Under the pieces are notes generated by a model. That model was not told the DNA's origin and did no database searches. It was given only the letters and a program-made list of their open reading frames with translations. A DNA stretch of 64,000 nt from NCBI GenBank assembly GCA_900553785.1, contig USES01000002.1, positions 15,326 through 79,325 of the forward strand. The letters are read 5' to 3'. The translations under genes and the position numbers were made by a program. Shown here piece after piece: positions 25,686-39,350 of the stretch (the first letter of the stretch is position 1; the number at the start of each line of letters is the position of its first letter). The stretch is from an uncultured Clostridium sp. (lineage in GTDB: Bacteria; Bacillota; Clostridia; TANB77; CAG-465).

Positions 25686-26099
25686 ATGGATTACACGACA
25701 AGTAAGGCATTTGTTATTGGAATAGGAATATTTGTAACTCTTATAATCGTAGGATCACTTATCCTAGTTTTTACTACAATTGCTGATATATATAACGCAA
25801 CTGAAAATACTAATACATCAATTGCATCTCAGTTTGATAATGTTTATTCAATGTATTCAGGAGCCTCACTAAATGCACTTAATTTAATGAATACACTTAG
25901 AAAATATGAAACAGATAGCCAAATTAGAATTGGAGTTGGCTTTAAAGGTGAAGATATAAACTATGCTGGGAGTAATGCAGGACTTTTAAATGAACTTAAC
26001 ACTAGTATAGAAGAAGGAACTTTAGGGTATGAAAAGATGTTTGATGTGTCAGTGATAGAAGATAACAATATAATAAGGATAATATTTTCTGAAAAATAG
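25686..26099 (+). CDS. Flp/pilin-like protein A (short leader plus hydrophobic helix plus about 100-aa globular part)
   Basis: gaggtga RBS. The N-terminus MDYTT-SKAFVIGIGIFVTLIIVGSLILV aligns with ORF B and with the spacing of the Flp motif (A at +3, G at +7), but it lacks the E/Y pair. Confidence 0.5.
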   Translation: MDYTTSKAFVIGIGIFVTLIIVGSLILVFTTIADIYNATENTNTSIASQFDNVYSMYSGASLNALNLMNTLRKYETDSQIRIGVGFKGEDINYAGSNAGLLNELNTSIEEGTLGYEKMFDVSVIEDNNIIRIIFSEK

Positions 26100-26108
26100 G
26101 AGGTAGCG

Positions 26109-37000: not shown

Positions 37001-39350
37001 GGATATAGTATGTACTACTAATGAAGAAACTGGGGAAGAATCTTGTTCTATTATAACGTTATCTTGTTCAGATGATTCAAACTGTGCTGCAGCTTTAGCT
37101 GCTATGAACCGAGCAGAAAGTGCTATGGATACAGCAAAAGGCGTATATAATACAGCTTTAAGCAATTTAATAAAGGCGTATGATGCAGAGAAAAGAGCAA
37201 TTCAACACTTTGATGAAGCATATTACATTCAAGAAAATCTATGGAATAAGTATAAGAAATTAGATGTTGAAGGTGTTTCTAAACTTATAGGTTTAGATGT
37301 TAAATTTGATTATTCTAGTGGTAATGCTAAACTTGGCGATGTGGATTTAATGACAGTTGTATCTCACACATATGAGTTAAAAAGTGATAATACGATAGCT
37401 TTAAGTGGCAGATATGGTGAAATGATTGATCTTGTTGCTTCAAGACAGACTCTAACAAGTGGACAAAAGAATTATTATACAAATGGTATACCTGCTTCTT
37501 GGATTGAAAATTCAAAGAATGGTATAGGAAAAGATTATTATAGTAACAATACATATAAAATACCAATTACAAGGTTAAATGGAACAAGAATTTTAGCTGG
37601 TAGAACAGATTACAGTATTGATACTTCAAATAGAGTAGGAAAGAGTTCAACTGTATCAGACAATATGTATTATACAATTGAGGAAGATAAGGAAAACAAG
37701 GTTATAACAGAGCATATATTTGATGTTAACTCTAATTCAAAATTCTCAAAAAGCTATGGTGTAACACAAAAAAATAGTGAAGAATTTAATGTATATACTC
37801 CACTAAAAATTGAAACAACGGTTAACCAAGATATAGATATAATAGACCAGACTAAGAAAAACAATTATAGCAATACGGATGTTATACAGGCCAACTCTAC
37901 ATTTACAGTAAACTTTAATTTTCCAAAGGATAAGAGTTATACAAATCAACCAAGTAATTTTACTTCAAGGTATAAACATACTGTATATATTAAGTTTGAA
38001 TTTGCAGTAACTAATGCGAACTACATAGGTTCAGAAGGATATAGTAGGTCACATGGTTCATATGAAGCAAATGAATGGATAGGCCCAATATATGGAGACA
38101 GTATCACAGCTGTACCGTACCTAAATACAGTTCAGGGTGAAAGTGTAACAGATCAAACATATAATTACTATGTAATTGCCACTGCTGTAAATACTAATGA
38201 AAGCTGGACAAAGTTGCTATTGAAGTATATTAACACTAGTTTGAATGATTTAAAAAATTCGGATTTGAAGAATACACTTAATAACGCATGTGGAGATGAA
38301 GGCGGCGGAAAGCTTAGTTATTATGCGGATAATGTTGGTACTGATGGTAAAGGTGGAACACTTATAATTGTAAATAGAATATATGACTTTAGAGTAACAG
38401 ACTTAAAGGATATAGATTGGAAAGATGTATTTAGAAATAATTTGTCTAGTAGTTTTGTTAACCAACATTCTGGAATTGCATATTATGCTGGATTAAACAA
38501 ATGGAATACTAAAAATCCATTAAAATATAATCAGATTATTGGTAGAACTGAAGACGAAATTGGAACATCGCCTAGTAGAATATTGCCTTTAGGACCATAT
38601 AAAAATACTAACACATCATATATTTCAGCTCCTAAGATGGGATATAGATTTAGTTTTGATTTTAAAGTATCTGGTGCTGAAAATAGTAAAAAGTATGTTG
38701 AAATATATCCAAGCTTTTACTATGTATCTAAAGACGGTAAGAATTTCTATACAGAAGGAAAAGGCGGAATATATTTGTTCTACAAGAATAGCCAAGGGCA
38801 GTATGTAAAGGTCGGTTCAGGTAGTGATAACTATAAGATACAATTTACACCGAACGATGGTTATAGGTCTTTGGTACAAACGGATGTAAGAAACTTAAAT
38901 TCTAAAGTTGTAACGTTAGGTTCACTTACAGATTTGAAGTTAACTTACTCACAAACAACAACTGTATCTATAAACGATGCTGCAATCACATATTATGGAG
39001 AATATAAACTTCCAAATTCTACTATAGCTGTAAAAGTAGATAATAACGGTAACTACGACATAAATAAACCTTTAACAGATGGTTATATTGGTGTAGTATT
39101 TGATATTCAAGCACATGAACCAACAGGTGTGGATTTAGTGTACGGTAAAAATTCATATAATAACAAAACTAATACAAGTCAGTGGGATTATGAAGGATAC
39201 CTCGGAATGTCAAAACCAGGAAGCAGTTATTCTACAACCTTGAAACTTGAAAAAGGTACATGGAAAATAGACAACACAACATATAACAAGATAAAAGGAA
39301 CAGTAATTTTGTACGATACAGACAGTAGAGCATCAAATGATTTTAACTAG
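34089..39350 (+). CDS. Giant (1753-aa) secreted protein, probable surface adhesin or fibre component
   Basis: Signal peptide MKLKGKFLTSIAMFMLFVCMLKSVLA. There are two MucBP-like units (...YGYSYVGYIED... and ...YEYVGYELKL...VTITFYYTRK) and a coiled-coil/Cys cluster. I see no LPXTG, SLH or C-terminal TM segment. Confidence 0.6.
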   Translation: MKLKGKFLTSIAMFMLFVCMLKSVLAVGSVYQTIIKYDTNESALIYRTIARPHTSTLNIFDKYNDWKASFVDSAEPTWQTYKAKDLIFTKGEIGVYGTSSNSPFGYARFLQSDSNDSESQNAFLSSDPAAVKKWVDTGYAEGRITHVKNATVDDKKYSDSDSHVPTPMFYAYSNNSGTPRAIMSYLNKESFDNYNANTISSVGASKVFPLLFNYIADPDNKGYLWVRPFNNSVAQFSVSGVVPFKTIRAMLYTTDANLANKMPSSNDSVTNSYYIEDVYLEPTVTQQLLDYYNNCQDQGNQNCNVYVSAIPATNAIWSDSASTKFYMLTPASFLYSKVRDFYGNGWSAGTLGRDNDGLGSGLNLWDNKLVLPTDVRHNKKIVVNHIAVDKDSKKHITYRLLESEERAVETLTAGNNSSSFYDINSLYLNSDKTLTGSVTKSKLLVDKTTIQENMLQYEIIAPNANTKYKVNKLTNLDYGYSYVGYIEDTLTKIEILNGSSTYFENKYKAKKQGDPIFDIPDDTDEIIINLFYEMDVKDVNVINKVCKDNDGILQTGEGSCVTIEGNKQIDLIHPENQNHSVVQFNGNTNEEKYTVNAAYDVEAENVNTETYEYVGYELKLTKNGSERIIRNSKEESCIATAKETETDEVTITFYYTRKATITKKPESKPNPDVPGTLTVLSTNPTDRTCEGNLYSVPTNARDNTNDIYVGIKNTPTYVLAGINVEQKDTKSSSHKVKINLTINFGPKPNVKTWTIEVPYSLSYYAIQELLIYKYKVAEIYSSGMANTKGEPLFNEKVSRITPVKTSELTLNASANSKISYTDTNNWKNYLVTSFKTNYIIPNVNPIDFYENKYGRTIWYDLYGGKKETKTYTQKDQSIDTYIKTDLSNAYRKITLDGSVDISISLLDSKIFGYIDTGNDVLEEQDLIDRKQYTNRCIENLNSAREDYRRAVSEYNAAVERYNKAEASRKKTDIVCTTNEETGEESCSIITLSCSDDSNCAAALAAMNRAESAMDTAKGVYNTALSNLIKAYDAEKRAIQHFDEAYYIQENLWNKYKKLDVEGVSKLIGLDVKFDYSSGNAKLGDVDLMTVVSHTYELKSDNTIALSGRYGEMIDLVASRQTLTSGQKNYYTNGIPASWIENSKNGIGKDYYSNNTYKIPITRLNGTRILAGRTDYSIDTSNRVGKSSTVSDNMYYTIEEDKENKVITEHIFDVNSNSKFSKSYGVTQKNSEEFNVYTPLKIETTVNQDIDIIDQTKKNNYSNTDVIQANSTFTVNFNFPKDKSYTNQPSNFTSRYKHTVYIKFEFAVTNANYIGSEGYSRSHGSYEANEWIGPIYGDSITAVPYLNTVQGESVTDQTYNYYVIATAVNTNESWTKLLLKYINTSLNDLKNSDLKNTLNNACGDEGGGKLSYYADNVGTDGKGGTLIIVNRIYDFRVTDLKDIDWKDVFRNNLSSSFVNQHSGIAYYAGLNKWNTKNPLKYNQIIGRTEDEIGTSPSRILPLGPYKNTNTSYISAPKMGYRFSFDFKVSGAENSKKYVEIYPSFYYVSKDGKNFYTEGKGGIYLFYKNSQGQYVKVGSGSDNYKIQFTPNDGYRSLVQTDVRNLNSKVVTLGSLTDLKLTYSQTTTVSINDAAITYYGEYKLPNSTIAVKVDNNGNYDINKPLTDGYIGVVFDIQAHEPTGVDLVYGKNSYNNKTNTSQWDYEGYLGMSKPGSSYSTTLKLEKGTWKIDNTTYNKIKGTVILYDTDSRASNDFN

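Follow-up and report, generated by a model that had tools for sequence, protein, structure and literature searches.

Gene content of the cluster

The window analysed here is a 64,000-nucleotide (nt) stretch of contig USES01000002.1 from an uncultured Clostridium sp., and its subject is a cluster of seven consecutive large open reading frames (ORFs), O1 to O7, that an earlier note, made from the letters alone, had put forward as a candidate undescribed cell-surface appendage system. ORF calling places all seven exactly where that note had them, between the housekeeping flanks it described: serS upstream, and a 304-amino acid (aa) anchored protein (O8) and an AI-2E transporter downstream (Table 1). 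The sequence belongs to a 126-kb scaffold of a human-associated metagenome (ENA ERZ28619677, OBRE15-1 scaffold_64; SAMN03283272). The window has a guanine-cytosine (GC) content of ~30% and carries ordinary chromosomal genes, including pgi, recJ, relA/spoT, ftsY, engB, serS, xseA, hisS-type tRNA synthetases and spoIVA. O1 to O7 all fall below every Pfam and NCBIfam cutoff, in line with the remark in the note that none of them bears a canonical family signature.

Gaps of 9–52 nt separate the genes from O1 to O5, which fits an operon, and O6 and O7 diverge from a 290-nt spacer. Four perfect TTGACA-17/18-TATAAT sites occur in the whole 64-kb window, where ~0.16 would be expected. Three of these belong to the cluster, standing ahead of O5, O7 and O8, and the fourth lies at 41601, before an AMP-binding gene at 41665. 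Between the sites of O5 and O7, 26 of 29 positions are identical, which bears out the shared promoters that had been claimed for the cluster. The position of the O5 promoter indicates that the TTG at 30303, the gene caller's choice, is the real start of this gene, and a 457-aa O5 is likelier than the product of the longest ORF.

Table 1. Coordinates of the cluster genes, their flanks and the associated signals in the window.
Feature	Position	Strand	Description
serS	24145-25443	-	upstream flank of O1
O1	25686-26099	+	ORF, 137 aa; small pilin-like protein
O2	26109-26513	+	ORF, 134 aa; second small pilin-like protein, MESSGEQALLIGVNVFILIIAL
O3	26524-28965	+	ORF, 813 aa; large modular minor-pilin-like protein
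O4	28982-30232	+	ORF, 416 aa; anchored via N-terminal helix
Promoter	30245..30273	+	perfect sigma-70 consensus ahead of O5, 17-nt spacer
O5	30285-31676	+	longest ORF, 463 aa; membrane-anchored
Terminator	31675..31709	.	bidirectional hairpin, 15-bp stem, between convergent O5 and O6
O6	31714-33798	-	ORF, 694 aa; secreted O5 paralogue, Sec signal peptide
Promoter	33976..34004	+	perfect sigma-70 consensus ahead of O7, 17-nt spacer
O7	34089-39350	+	ORF, 1753 aa; giant secreted protein with signal peptide
Promoter	39407		perfect sigma-70 consensus just upstream of O8, 17-nt spacer
O8	39460-40374	+	ORF, 304 aa; membrane-anchored, own perfect promoter
AI-2E transporter gene	40382-41482		downstream flank, after O8

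The cluster opens with two small proteins. In O1 a hydrophobic helix comes after a short acidic leader (MDYTTSKAFVIGIGIFVTLIIVG), and comparison of the cluster proteins with each other shows that the N-termini of O1 and O2 are alike; neither protein matches the Pfam Flp family. O1 orthologues in relatives (L numbers denote loci) lie between the machinery genes described below and the O3 gene, at 25–44% identity, and O2 orthologues are found at the same position in L005, L007, L010 and L040–L043. The small proteins of these clusters fall into recognisable classes, with an acidic leader of 4–7 residues, the motif (K/R)-A-[ILV]-x-[IV]-G and then ~20 hydrophobic residues. Sampling of the 396 small cluster proteins, O1 included, shows M[DE]xxxx(K/R)A[ILV]x[IV]G as the pattern that all their N-termini share. 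By eye only, the A-I-x-x-G spacing parallels the N-terminus of mature Flp (ATAIEYG). In relatives the gene for the major pilin-like protein is present in 2–4 tandem copies (for example L014 14040-15479, L018 13973-15663 and L022 4092-5659), whose first ~30 residues (MDNAQKAIMIGVGLFITIII...) are virtually identical within and between species and whose C-terminal parts diverge. As a sequence pattern, this suggests antigenic or functional diversification.

O3 consists of a conserved N-terminal module (N-module) of ~170 aa with a transmembrane (TM) helix, followed by a lineage-variable C-terminal region. Homologues of the N-module range from 147 to 1262 aa in total length, and the C-terminal parts of O3 relatives carry Laminin_G_3, ALK_LTK_GRD, dockerin, Big and PKD domains; O3 of the window has no Pfam match. 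Judged by its domain make-up, the family looks typical of an exposed, diversifying binding protein.

O4 has at its N-terminus a helix of ~57 residues containing the membrane anchor, continues in a beta-rich body and carries an H/C/C/C motif near its C-terminus. We found 143 full-length homologues, down to 39% identity, all of them unnamed proteins of 'Clostridia bacterium' metagenome-assembled genomes (MAGs). Fifty residues are invariant across 59 sequences, including H369, C374, C411 and C414, and the C-terminus (residues 369–416, ending GY.PC..C.P) has an Ada Zn-binding likeness with a Pfam E-value of ~0.01, below the cutoff. This C-terminal region may form a metal site; the sole membrane segment is N-terminal and the site would probably be extracellular, which would be unusual. 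The O4 family comprises 969 cluster representatives at E<=1e-3 and has no Pfam model. A Pfam scan of 40 distant relatives gave weak matches to Ada_Zn_binding in 3 and to ALK_LTK_GRD in 2, and no named family. The AlphaFold2 (AF2) model of O4 (predicted local distance difference test score (pLDDT) 83, predicted template modelling score (pTM) 0.70) is confident and contains beta sheets and two long helices, one of them the 57-residue helix at the N-terminus; this helix is pilin-like and is counted in favour of the pilus reading set out below.

O5 and O6 share 31% identity over their C-terminal 264 aa (E=1e-30), confirming the paralogy noticed earlier. O5-family proteins have a basic tail in the cytoplasm and a single TM helix; their N-terminal half is repeat-like, and their C-terminal domain, common to O5 and O6, is conserved. 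The repeats in the N-terminal half of O5 are degenerate and SLH-like, and here the earlier description of both proteins as SLH-like finds weak backing: O6 reaches E=0.069 and 13.6 bits against the Pfam SLH model (cutoff 20.8), O5 has no match, and 3 of 32 O5-family members match (best E=1.3e-6). A search of PDB with the O5 family profile retrieved nothing meaningful and no SLH protein. An inverted O5-like gene similar to O6 occurs in L010 and in none of L093, L005 and L007, and further O5-type duplications are present in L133, L140 and L145. O6 is a lineage-specific inverted duplicate of O5 and not a conserved member of the cluster.

O7 combines a signal peptide with a variable N-terminal part, a coiled coil and a C-terminal region of ~700 aa that is strongly conserved up to the last residue, as seen among the 11 homologues retrieved. 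An AF2 model of the C-terminal 916 aa (12 sequences) reached pLDDT 49 and is unusable. O7 is a candidate tip or adhesin component.

Synteny with a CpaF-type machinery and a split locus

The cluster genes are syntenic across relatives, as the proposal of a conserved block had implied. The order O1-O2-O3-O4-O5-O7 is kept in L003, L005, L007, L010 and L093, and in L005 and L007 the AI-2E transporter and AMP-binding genes follow downstream, as in the window. Upstream of the block, relatives encode a CpaB-like protein with a SAF domain (~343–373 aa) and two proteins of ~240 and ~270 aa, next a 630–632-aa P-loop ATPase with an N-terminal TM helix and a 685–690-aa polytopic membrane protein, and then 1–4 copies of a 130–190-aa protein starting MDNAQKAIMIGVGLFITIII, a second small protein and a short O3-like protein. 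L009 and L050 illustrate the series, with proteins of 343–373, 237–241, 269–271, 630–632 and 685 aa followed by small single-TM-helix proteins and an O3-like gene.

In PDB, the relatives' ATPase comes closest to CpaF, the Tad ATPase of Caulobacter (E=7e-8 across ~270 residues, Walker and His boxes included). The same protein scores E=1e-6 and 28 bits against the NCBIfam TadA-family model TIGR03819 (cutoff 373) and E=0.003–0.006, below the cutoff, against Pfam T2SSE, and some database sources name it 'pilus assembly protein CpaF'. On sequence similarity, the 630-aa protein is a divergent CpaF/TadA ATPase. The CpaB-like protein matches SAF above the cutoff (E=1.9e-6) and TIGR03177 pilus_cpaB at E=0.0033 and 16.7 bits (cutoff 71), and the 685-aa polytopic protein, the putative platform, has no Pfam or NCBIfam T2SSF match. 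The annotations of the window, of the retrieved clusters and of the published cluster discussed below include no prepilin peptidase (TadV/CpaA, peptidase A24).

We then asked how widely this arrangement occurs, using one genome per species. A relative of the ATPase is encoded in at least 578 stretches of the species-genome collection, and all 80 listed ATPase loci belong to uncultured Clostridia or Bacillota MAGs (for example Clostridium sp. CAG:921, CAG:1219, 26_22 and UBA4698). An O4 homologue lies within 10 kb downstream of the ATPase in 57 of these 80 loci, and 9 others are too short to tell. A second set was centred on O4 and comprised 57 metagenome loci at 33–76% O4 identity, counted as informative where they extended at least 2.5 kb downstream (for O5), at least 6 kb downstream (for O5 and O7) or at least 9 kb upstream (for platform and ATPase). 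Every informative locus agreed: an O5 homologue follows O4 in 41/41, O5 and O7 homologues are both present in 38/38, and the platform and ATPase stand upstream in 27/27.

The CpaF-like ATPase is unusually conserved. Among the top 120 ATPase clusters at 90% identity none falls below 84% identity with the query, and 7514 of the 8000 scored candidates match; the pilin-like and O4 proteins of ATPase-bearing genomes are only 25–50% identical to those of the window. In the L003/L009 lineage the cluster sits among sporulation genes (L003 13983-16411, L009 1-520): yqfD and ybeY precede it, and spoIID, a gene for an M23 peptidase and spoIIID follow it. A spoIVA gene (53101-54564) is present in the window as well.

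These linkage data also bear on whether O4, O5, O6 and O7 are pilus parts at all or merely syntenic envelope and surface neighbours. None of the four has a pilin signature, O5 and O7 have their own promoters, and none of the four appears in the published 12-gene description. In L056, a more distant lineage, the cluster is minimal: it consists of the machinery, two pilins, one O2-like protein, a 178-aa protein made up of the O3 N-module only and O4 as the last gene, with O5 and O7 absent. However, the linkage in the informative O4-centred loci is without exception, O4 begins 16 nt after O3 in every lineage, the minimal one included, and O4 to O7 moved together with O1 to O3 when the locus split. 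We consider it unlikely that these genes are only neighbours. Because O4 closes the minimal L056 cluster, it is a core gene, and O5 and O7 are clade-specific additions.

In the window the block stands apart from its machinery, and this split arrangement recurs. L010 (76% O4 identity) and L093 (P0023, 60%) share the order ftsY, a histidine phosphatase gene, engB and serS (both on the minus strand), O1-O2-O3-O4-O5-O7, a gene for 304–320 aa and, where reached, the AI-2E transporter gene. The gene after O7 is the counterpart of O8; its product measures 320 aa in L010 and 308 aa in L093, and L005 and L007 have no such gene. O8 is kept after O7 in the split sub-lineage only and is an uncertain member of the system.

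The other half of a split locus can probably be located in the MAG RGIG7442. Its contig JAFYUV010000017.1 (L050; 366,052 bp) carries the genes from cpaB to the ATPase, the platform, pilA, pilB and a 264-aa O3-like gene whose product has a dockerin domain, followed by unrelated genes (membrane proteins, dapA and murC). P0023, an O4 homologue (IKV94_04520), and P0251, an O7 homologue (IKV94_04530), come from a locus with the serS arrangement of the window, and the longest contig recorded for them is 366,052 bp, equal to that of L050. Both halves in RGIG7442 are very probably on one contig of one genome, so a split lineage keeps its motor. We infer that the genome of the window likewise retains the motor half.

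A probable distal pilus half and its alternatives

We read the region as the distal (subunit and tip) half of a Tad-like (type IVc-like) pilus cluster of the order TANB77, the motor of which is encoded elsewhere in the genome, and put the probability of this at about 0.75. The fusion of the block in relatives to a CpaF/TadA-type ATPase, a platform, a CpaB-like and ParA-like proteins shows that the earlier picture, in which the cluster supplies the parts of a fibre without its motor and the motor is to be sought at a distal locus, was essentially right. Four alternatives are weighed in this text, namely the mere-neighbour possibility above and the three that follow, and each is less likely than the pilus-half reading.

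In the mechanism that we propose, O1 and O2 would be small pilin-like subunits, O3 a modular minor pilin whose binding domain varies between lineages, and O4 a conserved anchored component that ends the minimal operon; taken together, O1 to O4 may serve in initiation or as minor pilins. Association with the envelope is proposed for O5 and for O6, its inverted duplicate; these two possibly bind the wall and may connect the structure to it. The giant O7 would be secreted and probably presented on the fibre or together with it, and O3 and perhaps O7 would supply the binding surfaces. The machine would comprise the CpaB-like protein, the two ParA-like proteins, the CpaF/TadA-like ATPase with its N-terminal TM helix and the fused TadC/TadB-like platform, with the ATPase and platform extracting subunits from the membrane and polymerising them. 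Its genes lie immediately upstream in most relatives, and a rearrangement would have moved them elsewhere in the chromosome in the sub-lineage of the window. The synteny, the motor homology in relatives, the split organisation and the promoter sharing are observed directly; that a filament is actually built, and what O4 to O7 individually do in it, we infer.

A more specific version of this mechanism is possible, and we offer it tentatively. O4, O5/O6 and O7 could be unrecognised structural parts of a monoderm-specific, Tad-derived filament, with O4 as its terminal subunit, O5/O6 as a wall tether and O7 as a tip adhesin. O4 would then be near-universal, with an extracellular H/C/C/C metal site, and the C-terminus of O7 would dock onto the O1–O4 initiation complex. 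The subunits would use a non-canonical, acidic and very short leader, perhaps without a classical prepilin peptidase. If this is true, the TANB77 machine is a distinct branch of the type IV filament superfamily and not just a divergent Tad pilus.

Several results count against the assignment to a Tad-like pilus. None of O1 to O7 matches Flp, TadE or any pilin model in Pfam or NCBIfam. The Flp motif G/XXXXEY is absent from the N-termini sampled among the 396 small cluster proteins, which lack E5-Y6, and the leaders of the small proteins are acidic, not basic. Profiles of the O3 N-module and of O4 retrieve nothing meaningful among PDB sequences, and the O4 model gives no fold match in a Foldseek search of PDB, solved pilins included (best E 0.065, TM-score <= 0.12). 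An hhalign comparison of the O3 N-module with O4 yields no match, at a probability of 0.7%. The genes are equated with those published for TANB77 by their architecture and not by comparing sequences. No TANB77 filament has been observed, and the published work consists of computation together with immunology on one recombinant protein. Lastly, the window holds no motor, platform or prepilin peptidase, and no CpaF-type motor, platform or prepilin peptidase lies within 10 kb of either window end.

The labels given to these proteins in the earlier note have to be read in this light. With E5-Y6 missing and no Flp model matched, 'Flp-like' for O1 and O2 is an analogy and not family membership: Pfam gives it no support, but the N-terminal architecture and the genomic context fit. 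The same holds for 'TadE/G-like' as applied to O3 and O4, where a TadE Pfam match is lacking and the N-terminal architecture and context agree; given the hhalign probability, these two proteins are not detectably related to each other. The search for a distal motor that the note had called for is likewise divided in its outcome, with none in the window or 10 kb beyond, but a CpaF-type motor adjoining the block in relatives.

The missing motor raises the question of decay. The split could have left this half of the locus as a remnant without a working motor, in which case no fibre would be built, and the separation of the genes together with the empty 10-kb surroundings is what a remnant would predict. 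However, every one of the seven ORFs is long and intact, the promoters match the consensus perfectly, the split arrangement is kept with intact genes across lineages at 60–76% O4 identity, and RGIG7442 appears to keep both halves. Decay is therefore highly improbable. At the window ends, a cluster resembling a type IV secretion system (T4SS) and a mobile element are found instead of motor genes.

A Tad-derived filament need not be adhesive: the machine might move O7 or other cargo across the wall by means of a short pseudopilus, or serve DNA uptake, or contribute to the morphogenesis of envelope or spore. Machines for secretion and for DNA uptake both belong to the type IV filament superfamily (PMC6668835), and a giant secreted protein, O7, is encoded in the cluster itself. 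Further points in its favour are the absence of Flp hallmarks from the pilin-like proteins, the extreme conservation of the ATPase (no less than 84% identity in the top 120 clusters) and the sporulation genes that neighbour the cluster in L003 and L009. An exposed binding fibre nevertheless fits better with the 2–4 tandem major pilins, their identical N-termini and variable C-termini, and with the lectin, Ig-like and dockerin modules of O3 relatives. A non-adhesive filament is on balance fairly unlikely.

The T4SS-like cluster is a separate set of genes at window positions 58517-63507 and beyond (L011 6981-19441). It contains three tandem TrbC/VirB2-type pilins (~58517-59660), a TraC-like gene (60174-61517) and a VirB4/TraG-P-loop ATPase (61537-63507), and continues past the window with five unassigned genes, a 956-aa M23 peptidase and a Replic_Relax protein. 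VirB4-like proteins are found on many contigs (58 blocks of the collection). The earlier note had suggested testing whether the fibre depends on this VirB4, and the presence of the VirB4-type ATPase and the TraC-like gene in the same window speaks for an independent appendage or secretion system served by the ATPase at 61537. Yet the T4SS-type set is self-contained, with three TrbC/VirB2-type pilins, an M23 hydrolase and a relaxase-like gene of its own, and O1 to O4 are fused in relatives to a dedicated CpaF-type machine, not to VirB4. Service by VirB4 is extremely improbable, and the suggested dependence on it is unlikely to apply.

The window starts inside an apparent integrated mobile element (567-7701, and upstream in L012 2361-9746) that carries phage-type integrase, TnpV, HTH_17 and Phage_rep_org_N genes, an 839-aa C5-methylase/Eco57I-like protein (567-3086) and several unassigned ORFs. 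Farther along, at 16015-17241, between a TraX-family gene (14825-15700) and an M23 peptidase (17468-18193), lies a gene for a 408-aa protein with a pilin-like N-terminus (MKKKNAISLIVLVITIIVMAILAA) and a C-terminal FGE-sulfatase match at E=7e-4, below the cutoff. The note had linked this protein to the cluster through a degenerate FGE-like module, which on inspection reduces to the short motif 'KYGGFY'. BLAST finds no match between the 16015 protein and the cluster proteins, phmmer gives ~2–4 bits on 'KYGGFY', no cluster protein has a Pfam FGE-sulfatase match (O3 none at E<=1) and none of 52 O3-family members has one. The 16015 protein thus has no significant similarity to the cluster proteins, and we rejected the link.

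Comparison with known pilus systems

A cluster of matching architecture has been published for TANB77, and the system cannot be called undescribed. Kim et al. (2024, Nat Commun) reported a stretch of 10–14 genes in 122 of 129 species of this uncultured order and proposed a Tad-type pilus (PMC11680825). Their representative comprises 12 genes, 927–938 of HRGM_Genome_2725 (CAG-245 sp000435175): CpaB (927, 358 aa), a TadZ-like (928, 231 aa) and a CpaE-like protein (929, 280 aa), TadA/CpaF (930, 640 aa, 1 TM helix), a TadC+TadB fusion (931, 693 aa, 8 TM helices), mostly single-TM-helix 'pilin-like' proteins of 143–237 aa (932–937, of which 934 has a signal peptide) and a 621-aa protein (938) whose N-terminal quarter is partly structurally similar to TadE/PilV (PMC11680825). 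Recombinant 938 acts on dendritic cells through TLR4, activating them, and in mice it improves anti-PD-1 responses; the abundances of TANB77 and of the pilin-like genes are linked to the response to checkpoint-blockade immunotherapy (PMC11680825). We found no later primary paper on the TANB77 pilus system.

The sizes, order and TM topology of these 12 genes recur in relatives of the window, which itself holds the distal part only. Relatives share the CpaB-like protein, two ParA-like proteins, a CpaF-like ATPase of 630–640 aa with an N-terminal TM helix and a fused platform of 685–693 aa, followed by several single-TM-helix proteins of 130–190 aa and a large protein with a conserved N-module, and in both cases the hosts are uncultured, low-GC gut Clostridia. 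The names of the relatives' MAGs (Clostridium sp. CAG:921, CAG:1219 and 26_22) and the GC content of 30% are consistent with a placement in TANB77. No locus with the exact published gene lengths is among those retrieved. The window genes are orthologous to the distal genes of such clusters, as O1–O4 homologues stand directly downstream of the machinery in 57 of the 80 ATPase-centred loci. By position, O1, O2 and O3 match genes 937 and 938, and O3 is the probable counterpart of the published 'pilin 938' by position and architecture. Two differences stand out: the distal genes of the window lie apart from the machinery, beside serS, and the published set ends at 938, so that O4, O5/O6 and O7 are not in it.

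Both the kind of system and its TANB77-specific cluster were accordingly already known, and the window adds a new member with a split organisation. What appears to be new is that O4, O5 and O7 are conserved, linked components, that O4 closes the minimal cluster and lacks a PDB fold match, and that the locus can split. The conserved set is larger than the published 12 genes, adding O4 and, in many lineages, O5 and the giant O7. Genomes with a split locus may be misscored in surveys that look for the cluster in a single contiguous piece. TANB77 is an abundant uncultured order of the human gut, and the recombinant TLR4-active 'pilin' 938 probably belongs to the O3 family; the variation of O3 C-terminal modules between lineages matters for any use as a biomarker or adjuvant. 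With components this far from every curated Tad model, the system is also well suited to studies of type IV filament adaptation to an envelope of the Gram-positive type.

The TANB77-type cluster can further be set beside the Tad/Flp (type IVc) pili of Caulobacter crescentus (Cpa), Aggregatibacter (Tad) and Bifidobacterium breve. The relatives' ATPase is closest to CpaF, a CpaB-like SAF-domain protein is present, and larger TadE/F/G-like proteins come after the small subunits; according to the structural homology reported in PMC11680825, ParA-like proteins of the TadZ/CpaE type and a platform of the TadB/TadC type are shared as well. Despite these likenesses, all TANB77-type components fall under the curated Tad family cutoffs. 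Their subunits are ~130–190 aa long with a globular domain and without G/XXXXEY, whereas Flp peptides measure ~50–70 aa. The cluster has no TadV/CpaA peptidase, a single fused platform, a TM helix on the ATPase, and O4, O5 and O7 as extra proteins.

A looser parallel is offered by the PilY1/PilC tip adhesins, which act with type IVa minor-pilin initiation complexes (PMC13533445). These have no sequence similarity to O7, which carries a long coiled coil. The parallel is an analogy only: O7 is a very large secreted protein with a strongly conserved C-terminus, and its gene stands beside a set of minor-pilin-like genes.

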